The notes below the pieces were generated by a model that saw nothing but the letters and a program-made list of their open reading frames with translations, searched no databases and was not told where the DNA came from. From the UHGV virus genome UHGV-0247665: a stretch of 25,422 nt of DNA; one strand, written 5' to 3'. Shown here in pieces: positions 1,548 to 25,181 of the stretch. The DNA is from a virus. Position numbers and translations under genes: made by a program. The stretch's first letter is position 1. Each line of letters starts with the position of its first letter.

Positions 1548-1562
1548 TTACCTTTCGGGTAA
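1548..1562. promoter_or_regulatory. TTACC-N5-GGTAA palindromic motif copy (ATTACC-tttcg-GGTAAT)
   Basis: In the divergent intergenic region between the tailspike start (1443) and the LexA box/85-aa gene; followed by TTGCAA. Confidence 0.5.
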
Positions 1563-1638: not shown

Positions 1639-1896
1639 ATGCAGCAGTATCACTATCCACTGGAAGACGGATTTACCGAAAGGATTCACACGCCGGGAGG
1701 CGTCAGGTCACTGGTGGAGGGATCGCACTTGATGAAATTACTCCGGGATCTCGATAAGGATGGATTTAATGTCGATGGCCCACTTGCCGAACTGACTGCA
1801 CTGATTAACTACGTCACCAGCTCACAGATGTCTATGCAGGATCTACAAACACATCTCGACTATTGTGCCGAACAATTACGAAAACAAACCAGATAA
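1639..1896 (+). CDS. Small protein (85 aa) homologous to the C-terminal domain of the downstream antirepressor; candidate SOS-controlled antirepressor or modulator
   Basis: ORF track 1639..1896; GGAG at 1627-1630, 8 nt before the ATG. Its sequence (HTPGGVRSLVEGSHLMKLLRDLDKDGFNVDGPLAELT...DLQTHLDY) aligns with antirepressor residues HSPSGVLGLTENSLLMNLLNQLQEDGHDVSGAAAELT...DIQTHAEY at roughly 35-40% identity by eye. Confidence 0.7.
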   Translation: MQQYHYPLEDGFTERIHTPGGVRSLVEGSHLMKLLRDLDKDGFNVDGPLAELTALINYVTSSQMSMQDLQTHLDYCAEQLRKQTR

Positions 1897-2055: not shown

Positions 2056-2208
2056 ATGTGTAAAGCGCACCTATTCTATGGTGGGCTGTGTGGGGGCACC
2101 GAAAGGTGCGCCGGGTCCTTTGTAGCCGGTTACGCCAACCCTGCACAGTTCACCACCAACCGATTGGCGTCGGTAGTGGTGATTAACCTAACTACAAAGG
2201 TGATCGCT

Positions 2209-2895
2209 ATGACTGCTAACGTAACCCCATCTGTTTTTCATTTTGAATCAGAAGCAACCATTCGAGCCATTGTTATTGATGGAAATCCTTGGTTTGTTGC
2301 CAAAGACGTTATTAAAGCTCTTCAACTGACAAACCCCACTATGTCAATAAAATCTCTTGATGATGATGAAAGGGCTAAATTTAACTTAGGCCGTCAAGGC
2401 GAAACCAATATTATCAACGAGTCAGGCCTCTACACACTGTTCCTCCGCTGCCGCGATGCGGTGACACCAGGCACTACCCCCTACCGCTTTCGTAAATGGG
2501 TTACAGGTGAGGTTCTTCCTCAGATCCGCCGCACCGGAAGCTACATTAAAAACTCGCTCCCGCAGGAAGAACGCATAAAGATGGTTGCCGACCAGGTAGC
2601 CAACGCCACGGCGTCAGCAGTAATGCAGGCGATGAAGATAGAGAACAAAACCTACAGCGCCCCGCTGAAGCCCGGCTACCGCAGTTTGATTCACTCGCCG
2701 TCTGGTGTTCTCGGCCTGACGGAGAACTCACTGCTGATGAATCTGCTGAACCAGTTACAGGAAGACGGGCACGACGTATCGGGCGCGGCGGCGGAACTGA
2801 CCACCATGTTCTGCTACATCGTCGGTGTGAGTAAATGCCTGCGTGATATCCAGACCCACGCGGAATACATCAACGACAAGGCAGGGGTCTTCTGA
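2209..2895 (+). CDS. Phage antirepressor with N-terminal Bro-N domain (228 aa from ATG 2209)
   Basis: In frame within ORF track 2056..2895. The ATG at 2209 is preceded by AAAGGTGA. N-terminus SVFHFESEATIRAIVIDGNPWFVAKDVIKAL...NIINESGLYTLFLRCRD...FRKWVTGEVLPQIRRTGSY matches the Bro-N consensus. The sequence upstream of 2209 within the tracked ORF is structured leader, not coding. Confidence 0.85.
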   Translation: MTANVTPSVFHFESEATIRAIVIDGNPWFVAKDVIKALQLTNPTMSIKSLDDDERAKFNLGRQGETNIINESGLYTLFLRCRDAVTPGTTPYRFRKWVTGEVLPQIRRTGSYIKNSLPQEERIKMVADQVANATASAVMQAMKIENKTYSAPLKPGYRSLIHSPSGVLGLTENSLLMNLLNQLQEDGHDVSGAAAELTTMFCYIVGVSKCLRDIQTHAEYINDKAGVF

Positions 2896-3312: not shown

Positions 3313-3680
3313 CAGAACAACAACTCATTGATCTTGAGGATGAGATTAACGAGATCTTGCAAGAAGATGCGGCAAGAATTCACTTTTCATTTCACGCAGC
3401 ATATGAACGCCTGAACGACGAGAGGAACAAACCGCCAATTACTCTTGCTGAGCTTGAAGATGTGTTTAAATCGTTTATATCTGCACATCTGCAGACTGTT
3501 TTGGATTTTGCTGAAGGTACAACTTTCACCATAAAGTGCAACAAAAGCGCCCTTCATTTTCCTTGCGCCATTGTACACGAAAGAGAGTTTGGGAAAACGT
3601 GGGTTATCCAAAACGTCATTACAGCCATGAGGAAAGTGGGATTCAAGTCTAAAGATTCTATTATCCTCGAAGTTAATTAA
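3303..3680 (+). CDS. Hypothetical acidic protein (125 aa), second gene of the cassette, translationally coupled
   Basis: ORF track 3303..3680. Its ATG at 3303 overlaps the upstream stop at 3310-3312 (ATGTCTATAA) with no independent SD in range. Followed directly by a terminator. Confidence 0.65.
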   Translation: MSITEQQLIDLEDEINEILQEDAARIHFSFHAAYERLNDERNKPPITLAELEDVFKSFISAHLQTVLDFAEGTTFTIKCNKSALHFPCAIVHEREFGKTWVIQNVITAMRKVGFKSKDSIILEVN

Positions 3681-3773: not shown

Positions 3774-3935
3774 ATGAAAAAAGCATTTGCTGCACTGTTC
3801 GTTTTGTTGTCTCTGGTAGCTTCAACTCAGGCCTTTGCCGGTCGTTGTCAGCACGACAGCGACACTGCTGCTGACGGCTCCCGCTGCGGTGGGCGTTCTG
3901 CGGATTCCCGCCCGGGTGGCGGTGGCATTCGTTAA
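3774..3935 (+). CDS. Small secreted protein (53 aa precursor; Sec-type signal peptide, about 31-aa Gly/Arg-rich mature part with two Cys)
   Basis: Internal ATG of ORF track 3702..3935. MKKAFAALFVLLSLVASTQAFA is a canonical signal peptide with an AxA cleavage motif; the mature part is GRCQHDSDTAADGSRCGGRSADSRPGGGGIR. Possible promoter TTGACG (3733-3738) and TATAGA (3755-3760). The SD is weak. Confidence 0.5.
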   Translation: MKKAFAALFVLLSLVASTQAFAGRCQHDSDTAADGSRCGGRSADSRPGGGGIR

Positions 3936-3958
3936 AAACAAGGCCGCGAAAGCGGCCT
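3931..3958 (-). terminator. Intrinsic terminator for the minus-strand lipoprotein gene (7-bp GC stem with GNRA-type loop, U-run on the minus strand)
   Basis: AGGCCGC-GAAA-GCGGCCT at 3941-3958. On the minus strand it is followed by TTGTTTTTAAC. It sits between the convergent genes ending at 3935 (+) and 3967 (-). Confidence 0.55.
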
Positions 3959-3970
3959 GTGACATGTCAC
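3959..3970. repeat. 12-bp perfect palindrome GTGACATGTCAC (copy 1)
   Basis: Exact match; contains the TGA stop of the lipoprotein gene. Confidence 0.6.
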
Positions 3971-4347
3971 GCAACGCAATTATTACCGCGCCATGTAACA
4001 TTTTTAATAATCTTATCAGCACCAAACTCAACGTAAACAGAGCAACTGAAATGGAGTGTATAACCGCCATCAGTTGTTGCGTATGTGTTTGAATATATAG
4101 TATTACCAATTAGATTAGACGTAGTATTATACGTTGTGGTTTGTGGTACGTTATAACTACCAGAGCTTGAGTAAACATACACTCTGTTTCCATCTGGAGA
4201 TGTAAGCTCTCCCTGAGGATACCCCCACTGCTGAACCATTGCGTCTATACTCTGCCCGCGCCACGTAAGCATATTTCTTTCAAACTGTGCAGCTGACTGG
4301 CATCCAACGAGAAGCATAAATCCAAAAATCAAAAATACTTTTCTCAT
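3967..4347 (-). CDS. Outer-membrane lipoprotein (126 aa); candidate lysogenic-conversion or superinfection-exclusion protein
   Basis: In frame within ORF track 3967..4383. The ATG at 4347 is preceded by GGGGG with a 5-nt spacer. N-terminus MRKVFLIFGFMLLVGCQSA carries a lipobox (LLVGC). The mature part is Ser/Thr/Asn/Tyr-rich. The stop codon lies inside the GTGACATGTCAC palindrome. Confidence 0.75.
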   Translation of the reverse strand: MRKVFLIFGFMLLVGCQSAAQFERNMLTWRGQSIDAMVQQWGYPQGELTSPDGNRVYVYSSSGSYNVPQTTTYNTTSNLIGNTIYSNTYATTDGGYTLHFSCSVYVEFGADKIIKNVTWRGNNCVA

Positions 4348-4432
4348 AATTACCCCTATCATGGAAAAACAGCACCAATCCACAAATTAACTAGTTATTT
4401 TATTATTCTTCCGAACAATACAATTCCGAATA

Positions 4433-17660: not shown

Positions 17661-18362
17661 TTATTTGCCATAGAGCACTTCGGCCGCACTACGCTGGCCT
17701 TCATTACCACCGGTGACCATGCCATCTTCAGACATCGCCTTTCCGATTTTCACGAACGTTTTGACCAGATCAGGGTGATTACCCAGCCCGGTGGTGTTCA
17801 GATATTCTTTGAGTTCAGGTGTCCCGAACTGGTCAAGCGCACGCTGTGCGGCGCTAAGGTTAGAAATCAACTTGTCGCCACCGATTTCTTTGTCGGCTTT
17901 TACATCCGCAGCCCACTGCTCGGTTGTTTTCTGCCAGGCTTCTGCCTGGCGCTGCTGAACACCTGCCAGAATCTTCGGATAAGCATCAACCAGCTTTTGC
18001 GCTTGCTCGTTGGTCAGGTTTAGTTCTCGCGCCACCGGCTCGAATTCCTTCAACGCTTCTGTATCCAGCTCTACGCCTTCGGCAGCCTGAAACTCGTACT
18101 TTTCAGGCGCACCCTCTGGTTTATCGCCGTCCTTTTTTTCATCCTGCTTATCGTTTTCAGGCTTTTTGTCATCAGCAGGTTTATCGCCATCAGCAACAGG
18201 TTGTGGCTTATCACCTTCCTGTTGTGATGGATCACCAACTGGAGCAGGGTTATCACCTGCAGGCGCTGACGGTTCTGACGCAGCCGGAGCTGCTCCACCA
18301 TCGACTGGTTGCTCATTGCAAAGACGGCGATACAGCAAACGCTCAAATAAATTCATGATCAC
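17661..18362 (-). CDS. Scaffolding protein (233 aa)
   Basis: ORF track. Highly acidic, Pro/Ala/Lys-rich low-complexity N-terminus with a helical C-terminal part; lies between portal and capsid genes. Confidence 0.65.
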   Translation of the reverse strand: MIMNLFERLLYRRLCNEQPVDGGAAPAASEPSAPAGDNPAPVGDPSQQEGDKPQPVADGDKPADDKKPENDKQDEKKDGDKPEGAPEKYEFQAAEGVELDTEALKEFEPVARELNLTNEQAQKLVDAYPKILAGVQQRQAEAWQKTTEQWAADVKADKEIGGDKLISNLSAAQRALDQFGTPELKEYLNTTGLGNHPDLVKTFVKIGKAMSEDGMVTGGNEGQRSAAEVLYGK

Positions 18363-18655
18363 TCCTGTTCACTGGCCTCTTTGGCCATCTTCAAATACTG
18401 TTCAGGGCAATGCGCCATAACGCGCTGAAACAGTTCCAGCGCCAGATTGCGTTGCCCCTCATTAAATGCCATTGCCATAGCATCCATCGGAGAGATAGCG
18501 GAAAACACCCGGCCTTTCTCCAGCACCGACCAGACAACGCGACGCCCCTGTTCACTGCTCATGACAAAGCAAATGTCATCAATTTCACGCTGTGCCATGT
18601 CACGTTGCTTACGGGCGTTTTCTTCTTTCAGTTGATCGTCTTCGTAATCTGTCAT
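18359..18655 (-). CDS. Hypothetical head-morphogenesis protein (98 aa)
   Basis: ORF track. 4-nt overlaps with both the portal stop and the scaffold start. Confidence 0.55.
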   Translation of the reverse strand: MTDYEDDQLKEENARKQRDMAQREIDDICFVMSSEQGRRVVWSVLEKGRVFSAISPMDAMAMAFNEGQRNLALELFQRVMAHCPEQYLKMAKEASEQE

Positions 18656-20642: not shown

Positions 20643-20657
20643 TTACCTTTCAGGTAA
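20643..20657. promoter_or_regulatory. TTACC-N5-GGTAA palindromic motif copy (ATTACC-tttca-GGTAAG)
   Basis: Intergenic, between the 68-aa/portal gene start and the tRNA; a TTGACA hexamer lies at 20621-20626. Confidence 0.5.
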
Positions 20658-21254: not shown

Positions 21255-21611
21255 ATGAACGACCAGCAAATCGAAAAAGAAATCGTTGAGAAAGGCAAAA
21301 CCGCTCCGCGAGTTACGCCTCAATATATCGAAAGCATCATTCTTGAAGAGCATTTCTTTACTGCTTATGACGGCATTCGTGCTGCCAATATGGGCGTTGG
21401 CGATACGTGGACAGCGCATAAATCTACAGACCTCCTTACTTTCTGCGTACTGGTGCTGAAGAATGGCTTCACCGTCACCGGAGAGAGTGCCTGTGCAAGC
21501 CCGGAAAACTTTGATGCAGAAATTGGTCGGAAAATTGCCCGGCAGAATGCTGTAAACAAAATCTGGATGCTTGAAGGTTACTTGCTGAAGCAGAAGTTAA
21601 GCGAGCAATAA
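21255..21611 (+). CDS. Small conserved phage protein (118 aa); tentatively N4 gp49 / Sf6 gp66-like family
   Basis: ORF track; SD AAGGTGA. The family assignment is recalled from the motif FCVLVLKNGFTVTGESACASPENFDAEIGRKIA and is unverified. Confidence 0.65.
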   Translation: MNDQQIEKEIVEKGKTAPRVTPQYIESIILEEHFFTAYDGIRAANMGVGDTWTAHKSTDLLTFCVLVLKNGFTVTGESACASPENFDAEIGRKIARQNAVNKIWMLEGYLLKQKLSEQ

Positions 21612-21615
21612 CACC

Positions 21616-21627
21616 GTGACATGTCAC
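21616..21627. repeat. 12-bp perfect palindrome GTGACATGTCAC (copy 2)
   Basis: Exact match; 5 nt after the stop of the 118-aa gene and adjacent to the terminator hairpin. Confidence 0.6.
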
Positions 21628-21631
21628 AAAC

Positions 21632-21659
21632 AGCCAGCTCATAGGCTGGCTTTGTTTTA
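21632..21659 (+). terminator. Intrinsic terminator (AGCCAGC-tcatag-GCTGGCT then TTGTTTTA) between convergent genes
   Basis: 7-bp stem with a T-rich tail on the plus strand; lies between the 118-aa gene stop and the large terminase stop. Confidence 0.55.
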
Positions 21660-21701: not shown

Positions 21702-23177
21702 TTAAGCATACGGGTCATAATCTGTGATGGCCTTGCCTTGCTGGTTCTGCTGCCCAGGAATTCGCAGACGCTTCGACACAGGGAAAGCAAACGTCAGCAA
21801 TAGCGCATCGCCTTTACCAGGAGAACGCCCAAGCCGCTCCTTGATATCTTCCTTCGGTTCGATAACGATTTTACCGTCCACGCGAACTTTGTACTCTGCC
21901 GCCGACAGGTCGTCCGCTGTTTCCTGGTCATCCAGCATGCCGCCCAGCCTCAGCCATGTCTTGCATGAGTTGAACATCTCCCCACGCTTGTTAAGCATCT
22001 GCGGGTCAGTAGACGCGCCACCGAACGGAACAAGTTGCCATGTACGCCCCCAACCATCACCGATTGACTTCAAACCGGTTCCGTAACCGAAGTCGATGAA
22101 CACCGCGTCAGCCTGGTACTGGTCTTCAAAGTCAGCGATACGCTTCGCCATAATCAGATCGTCAGTGGTCTTGTTGCCGGTCCACAGCACCTTACTGTGC
22201 AGCCCCTGCCGCAGATATATCACCGCGTCATCAACACCGGAGTATGCCGGGTCAACGCCGATTATCACCGGAGCATGTGCAACCTGCGCAGCGGTGACCA
22301 CCCGTTTCATTGCCTCGTCAGTAAGTCCGGTAGGGATAAACTGCAATTCAGATGCATCCGGGAATATGCCGCGCACACGGATTTTAACGAAGTCGCTATC
22401 TTCCCCGTAGTCATCAACCCATTTCTGCAACTGCTGTTTGTTAGTGCCTTCCACCGTCCGGCTGTCAATCTGCGCAGTTTTCCAGCGGTGTTTGTATTTG
22501 CGGAAACATTCGCGAAAACGCCCGGTATTACGTGTAGGGTTTCCGAACGCCACCCAGATAATCTCAGTGTCTTCGTCCGTAAGCGCACCCTCAGCAACTT
22601 CCCACACCAGATCCGCAATGTTCGACGCTTCATCGAATACCACGATGATGCGTTTGCGCTCGTTGTGTAGTCCGGCGAATGCCTCAGTGTTGTGCTCAGA
22701 CCAGGGGATTGCGTCAGCTCGCCACCGCTTGTCGTGCCCAGGATCATTGCTGTACATCGCAGTAGCGGTACAGGTAAACCAGTCTTTCGTGATAGCAAGG
22801 TTCGACCACTTGATAATTTCCGGCCAGGTCTTCGTTCGTAGCTGGTTGTCGGTGTTGGCGGTCACCACGACCTTACAATCCTCGCAAGTGGACATGCCCC
22901 AGTTGATCAGCATTGAGATGAATGCGGATTTACCAATACCGTGACCCGAAGCACGTGCCAGCATAAGCGGCTGATAGCGCGTCTCTGGATTCTGCAGGTG
23001 ATCACGTATCTCTCGGAACGCATCAGCCTGCCACTGACGTGGGCCGGTAGCATGTGCCAGTTCAGTCCCCTCTTCCCCCCACGGGAACGCATAGAGGGCA
23101 TAGCCAAGCGGATCGTGAGTGAACCCTGCAATATCCTCGATCAACTGCTCTTCAGGAGATAACGCTGTATCTGTCAC
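21702..23177 (-). CDS. Terminase large subunit (491 aa)
   Basis: ORF track. Walker A-like GHGIGKSAF, Walker B-like IIVVFDEAS, and C-terminal nuclease-type motifs (GVDPAYSG, FIDFGYG). 4-nt overlap with the small-subunit gene. Confidence 0.9.
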   Translation of the reverse strand: MTDTALSPEEQLIEDIAGFTHDPLGYALYAFPWGEEGTELAHATGPRQWQADAFREIRDHLQNPETRYQPLMLARASGHGIGKSAFISMLINWGMSTCEDCKVVVTANTDNQLRTKTWPEIIKWSNLAITKDWFTCTATAMYSNDPGHDKRWRADAIPWSEHNTEAFAGLHNERKRIIVVFDEASNIADLVWEVAEGALTDEDTEIIWVAFGNPTRNTGRFRECFRKYKHRWKTAQIDSRTVEGTNKQQLQKWVDDYGEDSDFVKIRVRGIFPDASELQFIPTGLTDEAMKRVVTAAQVAHAPVIIGVDPAYSGVDDAVIYLRQGLHSKVLWTGNKTTDDLIMAKRIADFEDQYQADAVFIDFGYGTGLKSIGDGWGRTWQLVPFGGASTDPQMLNKRGEMFNSCKTWLRLGGMLDDQETADDLSAAEYKVRVDGKIVIEPKEDIKERLGRSPGKGDALLLTFAFPVSKRLRIPGQQNQQGKAITDYDPYA

Positions 23178-23770
23178 TGATTACCATCCTGACGTTCTTT
23201 GAGTCGCTTCCTGGCTGCTGCTATGCGATCAGCAATTGTCACATTCACATTAACATCCAGACGTTCTTTGAACGCGTTGACATCAACATGCTTACCAATC
23301 AGCTCAAGGTTCTTCACCTTGTCAGGCCATTTAATTTTTTTGAGGATTGTCTCTATCGAATCCTCGTTCATGTTCATGATGGTCGATGACAGATCAAAGC
23401 CACTAAGCGTAGTGCGCCAGATTTTCGGCCACTCACGGATTGGTTTAAGGCTCCCATCGTCGTTGAGGATGTCGATCACGTCCATCTGGTCGATCTGCAC
23501 CAGGCGCATGAGAACGTAATCAGCACTGACGCGCATTCGTTTGTTGCGCTCCTCCATCAACTCGGCAATCCGTTTTTGAATGCGTTCATCGCGCATCATG
23601 ACACTGGCTTTAACTGCCGCTGTATTTGGGGAGAATCCTGCGTTAATCGCTGCCTGAGTCTGGTTTTCAGGCGTTTTGATGTATGACTGGCAATAAGCCT
23701 CCTGCATTGCTGTTAGTGGCTTAAATTGCGTTGATTTGCGTTTATAGGTTTTAGGTTCAGCAGGCATCAT
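23174..23770 (-). CDS. Terminase small subunit (about 199 aa from ATG 23770)
   Basis: ORF track 23174..23848 uses a TTG start. I prefer the tandem ATGs at 23770 and 23767, preceded by GGTGG, because a terminator hairpin and motif cluster occupy 23771-23848. The LTAMQEAYCQSYIKTPENQTQAAINAGFSPNTAAVKA region resembles small-terminase (Terminase_2-type) N-terminal domains. Confidence 0.75.
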   Translation of the reverse strand: MMPAEPKTYKRKSTQFKPLTAMQEAYCQSYIKTPENQTQAAINAGFSPNTAAVKASVMMRDERIQKRIAELMEERNKRMRVSADYVLMRLVQIDQMDVIDILNDDGSLKPIREWPKIWRTTLSGFDLSSTIMNMNEDSIETILKKIKWPDKVKNLELIGKHVDVNAFKERLDVNVNVTIADRIAAARKRLKERQDGNQ

Positions 23771-23787
23771 AACCACCGTGGTAATAG

Positions 23788-23802
23788 TTACCGTTTTGGT
23801 AA
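23788..23802. promoter_or_regulatory. TTACC-N5-GGTAA palindromic motif copy within a cluster of GGTAATAGT repeats
   Basis: GGTAATAGTTACC-gtttt-GGTAATAGTACC lies 20-40 nt upstream of the small terminase ATG. Confidence 0.5.
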
Positions 23803-23813
23803 TAGTACCATGC

Positions 23814-23839
23814 AAAATAAAGCCGCCATAGTTGGCGGC
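23814..23839 (-). terminator. Intrinsic terminator on the minus strand between the 115-aa gene and the terminase operon (GCCGCCA-n4-TGGCGGC then UUUAUUUU)
   Basis: 7-bp GC stem at 23822-23839; the minus-strand U-run corresponds to plus-strand A-run 23814-23821. Confidence 0.5.
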
Positions 23840-23880
23840 AGTATTCAAAACCCATCAAATTCATCATGCATAATCTACTC

Positions 23881-23892
23881 GTGACATGTCAC
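23881..23892. repeat. 12-bp perfect palindrome GTGACATGTCAC (copy 3)
   Basis: Exact match; contains the TGA stop of the 115-aa gene, upstream of the terminase operon. Confidence 0.6.
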
Positions 23893-24236
23893 ACTATTAA
23901 TTTCGTTTCATGCCAGCCTTTAGTCACCCAGCATTGCGAGTCACCATTACACGGGCATGAATTAACGGGAACTCTCTCGCCGCACTTACCGCAACGTTTT
24001 CTGCTGATCGATTTTATACGCCCGCGCACACGTGCATCATCCTGGCGGATCAGCAGCGCGATGTACTCGGACATTTCATAGGGATCGCGACCAGGGCGCC
24101 GGGCGGCGCAGTTCCGCGCCAGCATTTCCTGCTCCTGCTTATCCAGCACCAGTTCAATTTTGCGCTCACCGGCGGCGGACTGCCGAGCGCGCTGCGCGGC
24201 TTTGCGTTCTGCGGGGGATTTAGCCACGAATCGCAC
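23889..24236 (-). CDS. Basic protein with C-terminal Cys cluster (zinc-ribbon-like), 115 aa
   Basis: ORF track (GTG start). CGKCGERVPVNSCPCNGDSQC near the C-terminus; Lys/Arg-rich N-terminus. The stop codon is embedded in the GTGACATGTCAC palindrome. Confidence 0.5.
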   Translation of the reverse strand: MRFVAKSPAERKAAQRARQSAAGERKIELVLDKQEQEMLARNCAARRPGRDPYEMSEYIALLIRQDDARVRGRIKSISRKRCGKCGERVPVNSCPCNGDSQCWVTKGWHETKLIV

Positions 24237-24342
24237 TCCACGCCAGATTGATTAATGACTCCCAGGTAATATAAACCCGGATACCAGCAGCCAGGCCGAA
24301 ACCAATCACCATGGCATAAAGCAGAGCGTTGCACTTGTTCAT
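24220..24342 (-). CDS. Small membrane peptide (40 aa), translationally coupled to the upstream gene
   Basis: ATG at 24342 overlaps the TAA of the 279-aa gene (TAATG); strong SD AGGAGG 7 nt upstream. MNKCNALLYAMVIGFGLAAGIRVYITWESLINLAWSAIRG has a single predicted TM helix. The ORF-track entry 24220..24489 is the same frame extended upstream. Confidence 0.5.
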   Translation of the reverse strand: MNKCNALLYAMVIGFGLAAGIRVYITWESLINLAWSAIRG

Positions 24343-25181
24343 TACTTCGCCTCCTGCGGCGGTTCCGGTAGCGGCATCCAGAACAAGGCGTTCCCTAACC
24401 ACGATAAAGTGCCATCGCTCAACTCCACGTATTCCCCTTGTACCTGTCCTGCCATATACTCGCCGTGCTTTGAATAAATTAAAATCCAATCATCTTGAGG
24501 GGGCATTCGCTCACTACAGCTTATCCAACCATCCGGAGTTACCGGAGAGTTGCCTGCCAGTCTACGCAAAACAGCCTTAACAGCCTCAATACGGTCATCA
24601 TCGCAATTTTCCAGCGTATCTATGCGGTCGAGCATGATGATGGCGTTATCAATATCAGGATTGCCGGTCCACTCATTACCGCGATTGGATTCGGCAGCCT
24701 GGTTGCCAGATGCTGGCTGATTGTCGGCTTTACCCAGTCTGTCGTCGCTGCATGAATGCCCTTCCAGCCAGGCCAATGCTTGTCGCATGAAATACGCAAT
24801 ATGTTTGCCGTGGTAATCGTCTTCATCGATGTGAAAAGCGATACTACGAATGTATTCAATTGCGTTTTCAATGGCCTCTAACGCTATCGGCGCTGGCGGA
24901 GTGGTATATAGTTTTCGACATTTGTATATCCAACCGGCATGGTCAGGCGTGTCTGTAAAACGCAAATCGTCTTCGTAGCACTCACGACTACGTTCTTTCC
25001 ATTCCGTCCACGGAACACCGCTATTCCAGGTGGGGCGAGTGCAGGACTGATACAGAACAGGCTCTGCTTCCAGCGATGCCAGTGCAATCCGTGCCAGTTC
25101 CATTTGTTCGCCACGGGTAAGTCCGTTTTCAAGCGGATTTTTAATGAACAATTCAATACGTTCTTTGGTAATAGTGGTCAT
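24342..25181 (-). CDS. Phage protein with C-terminal DUF551-type domain (279 aa)
   Basis: ORF track; SD GAGGA 7 nt before the ATG. The C-terminal signature DGWISCSERMPPQDDWILIY...ALFWMPLPEPP matches my recollection of DUF551. Confidence 0.65.
   Translation of the reverse strand: MTTITKERIELFIKNPLENGLTRGEQMELARIALASLEAEPVLYQSCTRPTWNSGVPWTEWKERSRECYEDDLRFTDTPDHAGWIYKCRKLYTTPPAPIALEAIENAIEYIRSIAFHIDEDDYHGKHIAYFMRQALAWLEGHSCSDDRLGKADNQPASGNQAAESNRGNEWTGNPDIDNAIIMLDRIDTLENCDDDRIEAVKAVLRRLAGNSPVTPDGWISCSERMPPQDDWILIYSKHGEYMAGQVQGEYVELSDGTLSWLGNALFWMPLPEPPQEAK

Follow-up and report, generated by a model that had tools for sequence, protein, structure and literature searches.

In the virus genome UHGV-0247665 (25,422 nucleotides; this whole stretch is referred to as the window), two small open reading frames (ORFs) lie on the minus strand just upstream of terS and terL: one for a Cys-rich protein with a basic N-terminus and one for a 40-aa membrane peptide, both present where the initial annotation had placed them. 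The present analysis concerns the Cys-rich protein, referred to here as the regulator, and a 12-bp palindrome of the form GTGAC-N2-GTCAC, a copy of which lies on the stop codon of its gene. By its sequence the window is an epsilon15/phiV10-type (Uetakevirus) prophage with its late genes on the minus strand. A megablast search with positions 23500-24700 matched phiV10, TL-2011b, phiv142-3, PAS61 and related Escherichia coli phages, and the gene order of the window agrees with that of the complete phiV10, epsilon15 and Tyrion records. The ORF finder reported the regulator as a 115-aa product with a GTG start (23889..24236). Since most of its 736 homologs are 112 aa long and a GGAG lies ~9 nt 5' of the GTG at 24227, translation most likely starts at this second GTG, yielding a product of 112 aa. 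The start of the regulator gene and the 3' end of the peptide ORF overlap by 8 nt (GTGGCTAA).

By profile comparison the Cys-rich protein belongs over its full length to PHROG 536 (E 6.2e-54, residues 5-114 aligned with profile positions 3-114 of 115), as do epsilon15 gp49, phiV10 p55 and N15 gp46; the family carries the name 'transcriptional regulator'. RefSeq gives the same label to the orthologs in phiV10 (p55), TL-2011b, Tyrion, phiKO2 and N15, and the depositors of the epsilon15 record had already likened gp49 to N15 gp46. The inclusion of N15 gp46 follows from tblastn searches, which lead from the window protein to epsilon15 gp49 and from a 38%-identical homolog in Kpn74 to N15 gp46 at 79.6%. 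An exhaustive profile search of 1.8 billion proteins gave 188 representatives at 50% identity; a scan of genome contigs gave 5 loci only. The family is small yet widespread, being found in phages of Enterobacteriaceae, Yersinia, Vibrio, Aeromonas, Photobacterium, Psychromonas and Paraglaciecola. Neither of the two ORFs matched a Pfam or NCBIfam family (Pfam threshold for the regulator, E <= 1), and a literature search for the palindrome, for N15 gp46 and for ribbon-helix-helix (RHH) late regulators found no published characterisation of any family member. A 'gp46' in the lysogen proteome of the telomere phage NAR688 was suspected to be the regulator, but the supplement identifies it as the cB repressor.

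The basic N-terminus and the Cys cluster, on which the initial annotation had based its proposal of a nucleic-acid-binding late regulator, are real and conserved. In an alignment of 56 diverse members, C79 and C82 are invariant and C99 is kept in at least 90% of the members, while at least four Cys lie within 32 aa of the CxxC in 56/56; the median net charge across the first 30 aa is +4.5. The conserved elements comprise a basic R-K-x-x-Q-R-x-R, a P-Y-x3-E-Y and a CxxCGxxLP followed by two more Cys. In Uetakeviruses the gene is always the last of the early operon before terS, and it also occupies the distal end of this operon in P2-like, N15-like and marine phages. The family match, the database name, the 4-Cys knuckle and this position all support a candidate regulator that would bind nucleic acid. 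The 'late activator' part of the proposal fares less well, as members of the family coexist with Ogr in P2-like phages, with Mor/C in Mu-like phages and with Q in N15 and in L013, so that a role as a substitute for Ogr, Q or Mor was rejected. In a Yersinia P2-like phage, for example, the family member gp13 occurs together with an Ogr-like gp51. The regulator itself matches no Q family in Pfam or PHROG, and a separate Q-like gene lies beside the homolog in L013/L023 and in N15.

The palindrome GTGACATGTCAC is present in the window as three exact copies (sites 1, 2 and 3; Table 1). In epsilon15 it occurs at all three syntenic places, and in phiV10, Tyrion, 66FD and the Klebsiella phage ST11-OXA245phi3.2 at two of the three each, with different flanking DNA; in TL-2011b it was found at the one place that its locus covers. 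A near-copy, GTGCCATGTCAC, lies at 18592-18603 inside the ORF 18359..18655(-), and the syntenic place in phiV10 has GTGACATGGCAC. Outside the Uetakeviruses, a palindrome of the same form lies on the regulator's stop codon in the Yersinia P2-like phage (GTGACGCGTCAC), in N15 and the Klebsiella telomere phages (GTGACTGGTCAC) and in Paraglaciecola-type phages (GTGACAGGTCAC). In the Mu-like and Aeromonas lineages (GTGACCGGTCAC, read as V-T-G-H) it falls within the final 20-51 nt of the gene, in Psychromonas-type phages (GTGACCTGTCAC or GTGACTTGTCAC) 120 nt before the stop, and in Vibrio phages (GTGACACGTCAC or GTGACGCGTCAC) 140-235 nt after it. In the Mu-like contigs (L027-L046, ~3352-3363), the V-T-G-H near the C-terminus is the translation of the embedded GTG ACC GGT CAC, so that in this subfamily a DNA site appears, from the sequences, to constrain the protein tail.

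Table 1. Features of the window that bear on the regulator and its putative sites.
Feature	Coordinates	Strand	Remarks
Regulator gene, gp49/gp46 family (PHROG 536), most likely 112 aa	23889..24227	-	Homolog length and Shine-Dalgarno GGAG
Site 1, GTGACATGTCAC, proposed operator	23881..23892	.	On the regulator TGA stop codon (GTG TGA CAT GTC AC)
Intrinsic terminator T1 (GCCGCCAACTATGGCGGC + TTTATTTT), early-operon end	23813..23839	-	41 nt downstream of site 1
Extended -10-like element TGgTACTAT	23802..23810	-	Conserved across Uetakeviruses
Two TTACC-N5-GGTAA dyads before terS, probable prophage repressor operators	23770..23802	.	
terS, terminase small subunit	23174..23770	-	Pfam Terminase_2 1.4e-29
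Site 2, GTGACATGTCAC	21616..21627	.	Between terL and the convergent ORF 21255..21611(+)
Terminator (AGCCAGCTCATAGGCTGGCT + TTGTTTT), ends plus-strand moron converging on terL	21632..21658	+	4 nt past site 2
Site 3, GTGACATGTCAC, structural-operon end	3959..3970	.	Overlaps the end of ORF 3967..4383(-)
Terminator T3 (AGGCCGCTTTCGCGGCCT + TGTTTTT), ends structural operon	3934..3958	-	Abuts site 3; faces the apparently SOS-controlled antirepressor cluster
40-aa single-transmembrane peptide, PHROG 5525 (annotated function unknown), an accessory gene	24220..24342	-	
DUF551 / Ead-Ea22-like protein, 279 aa, upstream partner of the 40-aa peptide	24342..25181	-	

The strength of this association was assessed by counting all 1024 patterns of the type h5-NN-rc(h5), that is, a 5-nt half-site, two free positions and the reverse complement of the half-site, from -150 to +600 nt of the stop codon (750 nt) in 17 lineages of less than 70% protein identity. 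The pattern GTGACNNGTCAC occurs in 12 of the 17, as against two for the runner-up and a chance expectation of 0.012. The link between gene and palindrome is established, and we strongly infer from it that the regulator binds the palindrome directly. That the protein is a site-specific regulator recognising GTGAC-N2-GTCAC is accordingly held with high confidence; the palindrome, one of two motifs that the initial annotation had put forward as targets of the protein, is very probably its site, given the gene-site association.

Across these copies the half-sites are invariant and the central dinucleotide takes ten values, a pattern that points to a symmetric dimer on duplex DNA rather than to an RNA hairpin. 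An RNA-binding protein would be a very improbable alternative, in which the arginine-rich N-terminal helix recognises a GUGAC-NN-GUCAC hairpin, as lambda N does boxB, and thereby alters termination, the stability of the mRNA 3' end or the translation of the next cistron. Such a role would suit the basic N-terminal helix, the fact that every site is transcribed, the small hairpin predicted at sites 1 and 2 and the placement of the sites, some of which abut terminator hairpins while others lie directly before a Shine-Dalgarno sequence. However, the stem never covaries and the would-be loop varies freely, the opposite of what is usual in protein-bound RNA hairpins. Furthermore, a 5-bp stem with a 2-nt loop would be strained, the minimum-free-energy fold at site 3 does not include this hairpin, and the perfect dyad is well suited to a dimer on duplex DNA.

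Behind each copy in the window comes an intrinsic terminator whose polarity matches, at distances of 41, 4 and 0 nt for sites 1, 2 and 3, respectively. At site 1, the stem of T1 (23839-23822) is followed by a T-tract, and a terminator is annotated at this place in both epsilon15 and phiV10. The sequences of the hairpins vary between phages, and the juxtaposition of palindrome and terminator is kept. Over all lineages, a terminator lies no more than 6 nt away at 6 of 37 sites, compared to 1.4% of random positions, but the cases are almost all from Uetakeviruses, and terminator adjacency as a family-wide rule was rejected. Elsewhere, additional sites have other surroundings. In Vibrio phages the terS start codon follows a site by 11-19 nt, in the Vibrio phage K303 a resolvase-like gene comes 19 nt after a site, and N15 has sites both 12 nt before gene 47 and inside repA. 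The last of these, a second exact GTGACTGGTCAC at 33237-33248 of the N15 record within repA (gene 37), is kept in the Klebsiella phage Kpn74 and may link the regulator to the expression of the replication gene. In P2-like phages, a tandem pair of palindromes occupies a conserved block adjoining the portal gene. No palindrome site lies within a recognisable promoter, and the sole location that is constant across lineages is that of the copy at the 3' end of the regulator's own gene.

The profile search and structure prediction proposed in the initial annotation gave, besides the PHROG 536 match, a confident AlphaFold model (pLDDT 92). Close homologs by themselves had yielded a poor first model (pLDDT 67); a usable one came only from the diverse alignment. 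The model consists of a helix (residues 5-19), an extended segment (20-29), two further helices (30-42 and 52-74), the Cys loop and a short helix (100-107), so that the protein is predicted to begin with a basic helix, followed by an RHH-like pair, a knuckle of 4 Cys and a last short helix. In Foldseek searches with the monomer model, the best-scoring PDB entries align with the helix pair: TTHA0139 (probability 0.89, TM-score 0.61) and, far more weakly, a ParD antitoxin (probability 0.13, TM-score 0.58), both at E ~1-10. ParD antitoxins have the RHH fold. In addition, one or two of 56 relatives gave weak Pfam matches to RHH_5, RepB-RCR_reg and RHH_1 (E 0.013-0.07). In BFVD a single match reached E <= 0.001, namely a fragment of 46 aa with 95% identity to the query. 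An HNH endonuclease was rejected, as the BFVD matches are weak (E 1.9-9) and H106 is conserved among close relatives only and not family-wide.

These observations can tentatively be combined in an explanation in which the regulator acts at the boundaries of transcription units; as a whole it is possible, with our confidence somewhat short of even. The 112-aa protein, with its basic N-terminal helix, RHH-like core and putatively zinc-binding 4-Cys knuckle, would be a dimeric, sequence-specific DNA binder with GTGAC-N2-GTCAC as its operator, and would be produced last among the proteins of the early lytic operon. It would bind first at the copy on its own stop codon and then at the two further copies upstream of terminators, where the bound protein would control elongating RNA polymerase and reinforce the ends of transcription units. 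The boundaries kept apart in this way would be those between the early operon and terS, between the moron and terL, and between the structural operon and the convergent antirepressor cluster. At the 3' end of its own gene, the roadblock would truncate the regulator's mRNA and so exert negative feedback on its synthesis. This explanation accounts for the one universal feature, the site at the gene's own 3' end, and fits all three sites in the window. That the protein would act as a boundary or roadblock, rather than promote read-through, is held more tentatively still.

Several findings weigh against this explanation. The regulator of the window lacks any match in Pfam or NCBIfam, its model has no whole-chain fold match in the PDB at E <= 0.001, and the palindrome was not found near the gene in 5 of the 17 lineages. 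Furthermore, the residues of the putative beta-strand are variable although the half-sites are invariant, and the recognition element may instead be the basic helix. Adjacency to terminators is, for the most part, a trait that Uetakeviruses inherited by descent. In Vibrio phages, a roadblock at the site 11-19 nt before the terS start codon would hit a gene that is needed, and the same holds for the Mu-like site upstream of a Mor/C-like activator gene. Finally, a single 12-bp site occupied by a small dimer may be a weak roadblock.

The main rival reverses the effect at the same places. In this rather unlikely scenario the protein is a site-tethered antiterminator, Q- or N-like in function, which binds the palindrome at the end of the early operon and modifies passing or pausing polymerase so that transcription continues through T1 into terS-terL, its TraR-like C-terminal module contacting the polymerase. 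Its position as the last early gene directly before the late genes is that of Q in lambda; the sites all lie in transcribed regions and none at promoters; and in both the window and a Yersinia phage the order is site, terminator and then more genes. In marine phages with the family, the holin gene is directly preceded by a late unit that comprises a sigma-70-like promoter, a leader with a conserved hairpin (GTGG...CCAC) and a strong terminator (L072, the Vibrio phage K303, 33336-33495; L011, 615-725; L014, L016, L022 and L024). No homolog of the Q-like antiterminator of L013 was detected in these K303-type phages, and the strong terminator would here be the one read through by the regulator. 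A search for a fixed spacing between site and late promoter was negative: the site lies 108-145 bp upstream in the K303-type phages with no fixed phase, which speaks against antitermination. Read-through is also difficult to reconcile with sites 2 and 3, which precede terminators of convergent units, so that antisense RNA would be made across terL or the antirepressor cluster. As the sole late regulator, an antiterminator would moreover be at odds with the presence of Q, Ogr or Mor/C beside members of the family.

The protein itself gives this antiterminator a possible contact with the polymerase, in that its C-terminal half weakly resembles TraR/DksA in sequence. The three best matches in the PDB profile search are TraR and YbiI, both DksA/TraR zinc fingers (E 0.08-0.09). 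A comparison by hhalign, chosen after this result, aligned residues 47-107 with TraR 6-65, almost all of the latter protein (probability 71.6%, E 3.5e-5). TraR/DksA proteins bind in the secondary channel of RNA polymerase. On the other hand, the fourth Cys is not at the TraR position, none of the 56 members matches PF01258 and the Foldseek results do not include TraR. The RHH and TraR likenesses are best regarded as leads, since the regulator has the defining features of neither family.

Initiation rather than elongation would be the target of a classical activator, an improbable alternative in which a dimer at site 1 contacts polymerase at a weak, -35-less terS promoter after T1. Directly after T1, and overlapping the first repressor operator, a TGnTACTAT element without a good -35 is kept in the window, epsilon15, Tyrion, 66FD and phiV10; from its sequence it is a candidate repressor-controlled terS promoter. 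The packaging genes may therefore have a promoter of their own and would not require read-through, a point in favour of the boundary explanation. Counted from the presumed transcription start, site 1 is centred at approximately -91.5 (window type) or -73.5 (epsilon15 type), and both spacings come near those from which class I activators act. The name 'transcriptional regulator' in PHROG and RefSeq would also suit an activator. However, the two spacings, measured from that presumed start, are 18 bp apart, a distance that does not correspond to full turns of the helix. No promoter is near sites 2 and 3, so that activation would explain site 1 alone, and the sites of N15, Mu-like and Vibrio phages are intragenic or lie 11-19 nt before a start codon. 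In ST11-OXA245phi3.2 (L010, 6348-6744), a LexA-box promoter and an umuD-like gene are inserted between site 1 and terS, and the site 1-terS junction therefore accepts morons.

A role outside transcription is also very unlikely. The protein would then be an accessory DNA binder for packaging, recombination or replication, with the palindrome marking cos- or pac-proximal or module-junction DNA. In favour of such a role, both the window and Vibrio phages have a site adjacent to terS, sites also follow terL, one N15 site lies within repA, sites border variable cargo regions, and in marine phages the regulator gene follows int. The sites of P2-like phages fall in the conserved block near the portal-gene 3' end, the presumed location of cos. 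In these contigs (L050-L071, e.g. L051 3780-3880), ~34 bp separate a perfect palindrome from an imperfect one, and the block ends where variable cargo DNA or the portal-gene 3' end begins; it is possibly near cos and a known cargo hotspot. Three dispersed sites are nevertheless unlike a single pac or cos, the one location that stays constant, irrespective of how the phage packages its DNA, is at the 3' end of the regulator gene, and the protein has no nuclease or recombinase motifs and no conserved His. The palindrome was also considered as a physical genome end, as the phiV10 and Tyrion records open there. This was rejected: both records start right after the last gene and 2 nt apart, and their starts thus look like the annotators' choice rather than mapped ends.

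The second motif that the initial annotation had named as a possible target, TTACC-N5-GGTAA, belongs to another protein. It occurs as five exact copies in the window (1548-1562, 1928-1942, 2962-2976, 20643-20657 and 23788-23802), with a sixth at 23770-23784 carrying one mismatch, giving 6 matches compared to 0.48 expected. The epsilon15 record annotates this dyad as the repressor operator; there it flanks the repressor gene and stands before every operon, with copies ahead of terS, gp3, the tailspike gene and the lysis genes, and on the basis of this annotation and distribution it is assigned to the prophage repressor rather than to the regulator. The locations of the dyads suggest that the prophage repressor directly represses or blocks late units. 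Near the first dyads, a near-consensus LexA box (CTGT-N8-ACAG), TACTGTATAAATATACAGTT, lies at 1600-1619, directly 5' of the ORF 1639..1896(+) and also upstream of an Ant-like ORF, 2056..2895(+) (phrog_130/450), and the antirepressor cluster for this reason looks SOS-controlled. With regard to the packaging genes, terS likely starts at the ATG at 23770 or 23767, the TTG at 23848 given by the ORF finder being mechanical, and is followed by terL, which matches phrog_2.

The 40-aa peptide is, from its conservation, a real small membrane protein. Its single hydrophobic stretch spans residues ~6-25 (Kyte-Doolittle peak 1.85); the hydrophobic helix carries a GxGxxxG, and the tail a conserved WESLINLAW. 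The peptide is found in 42 protein clusters, mostly at 40-41 aa. The overlap of its ATG with the TAA of the upstream 279-aa DUF551 ORF (TAATG) was confirmed, so that the peptide gene is translationally coupled to DUF551, and an AGGAGG lies 7 nt upstream. P1-like phages encode a ~50%-identical peptide ~360 nt past a DUF551-type gene, from which it is separated by one small ORF, and other Uetakeviruses have DUF2591, ASCH or other small genes in its place. The peptide is thus an accessory protein unrelated to the regulator; it travels with the upstream DUF551 gene, and a pairing with the regulator was not borne out. Neither ORF resembles a canonical holin, endolysin or spanin, as had been stated, and no lysis family in Pfam or PHROG was matched. 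To expect lysis genes before the packaging genes is a lambda-centric view: the phages phiV10, epsilon15 and Tyrion have their holin, endolysin and Rz/Rz1 genes in the interval from the tailspike region to int, past the tailspike and adjoining int. This position of the cassette in complete relatives led us to reject a lysis role for either ORF, and makes a holin function of the peptide unlikely.

With the dyads reassigned to the repressor, the anonymous 'transcriptional regulator' becomes a testable pair, a protein family and a 12-bp operator with three mapped copies in the prophage. Protein and palindrome also occur together in the model phage N15 and in phages of the P2-like, Mu-like and marine groups. 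The family was already named in databases; the operator, its placement on the stop codon and the link to terminators are new as far as could be found. A bolder reading, which is to be regarded as unlikely at this stage, is that the gp49/gp46 family and GTGAC-N2-GTCAC form an unrecognised regulator-operator module that acts on elongating polymerase and not on promoters. An RHH-like/TraR-like zinc protein, bound on its own stop codon and next to terminators, would decide whether transcription crosses a boundary, and the module would be common to Uetakeviruses, N15-like, P2-like, Mu-like and marine temperate phages. If true, this would amount to a late-gene or boundary switch of a new kind and would supply the missing late control of epsilon15-like phages, for which neither the literature searched nor the annotated records (epsilon15, phiV10 and Tyrion) name a late regulator or a Q-like gene. 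Should the protein use a TraR-like module to act on elongation, by roadblock or by antitermination, the few phage devices that control transcription across terminators would gain a new type. Epsilon15/phiV10-like phages are used for the typing and detection of O157 and Salmonella and in structural work.

Compared to known systems, the regulator shares with the RHH repressors (Arc, Mnt, CopG, ParD and RepB-type) the small size, the basic N-terminus, the extended segment followed by two helices and the short palindromic target. It differs from them in lacking a significant Pfam RHH match and in adding an N-terminal basic helix and a C-terminal 4-Cys knuckle. With the C4 zinc-finger proteins of the TraR/DksA type it has in common a long helix, then CxxCGxx[LIV]P with one more Cys after it, and a short helix at the C-terminus. 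In TraR, however, the Cys are arranged as CxxC-x17-CxxC, whereas the fourth Cys of the regulator belongs to a loop instead of a second CxxC. The regulator also lacks a free acidic tip at the N-terminus, and its helix is preceded by a 46-aa part that resembles a DNA-binding domain.

Among antiterminators, lambda Q and those of the AlpA type are likewise encoded immediately upstream of the late genes, with a DNA element by the gene and a terminator downstream, and AlpA is an antiterminator that loads from a DNA site (PMC7969949). The regulator has no similarity to either in sequence or fold, its site lies outside a defined promoter, extra sites occur at the ends of convergent units, and members of its family coexist with Q in N15 and L013.

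For the favoured explanation, that of a protein acting at unit boundaries, two precedents can be named. The stoperators bound by gp71 of mycobacteriophage L5 are reportedly roadblock sites in transcribed regions, and LacI bound at O3, at the 3' end of lacI, is said to truncate the lacI mRNA. As in these systems, the sites described here lie in transcribed regions and at gene ends and not at promoters. The L5 stoperators are asymmetric and number ~30 per genome, compared to one to three symmetric sites here, and the proteins are unrelated. As with O3, the site on the 3' end of the regulator's own gene would give negative feedback. The closest counterparts are epsilon15 gp49 and phiV10 p55, to which the window protein is 84-88% identical and with which it forms the same family from end to end, followed by the N15 gp46 type at ~38-40% identity. 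All of them are encoded by the last or penultimate gene of the early operon and have the same palindrome at the stop codon, and there is no difference in kind between these proteins and that of the window.

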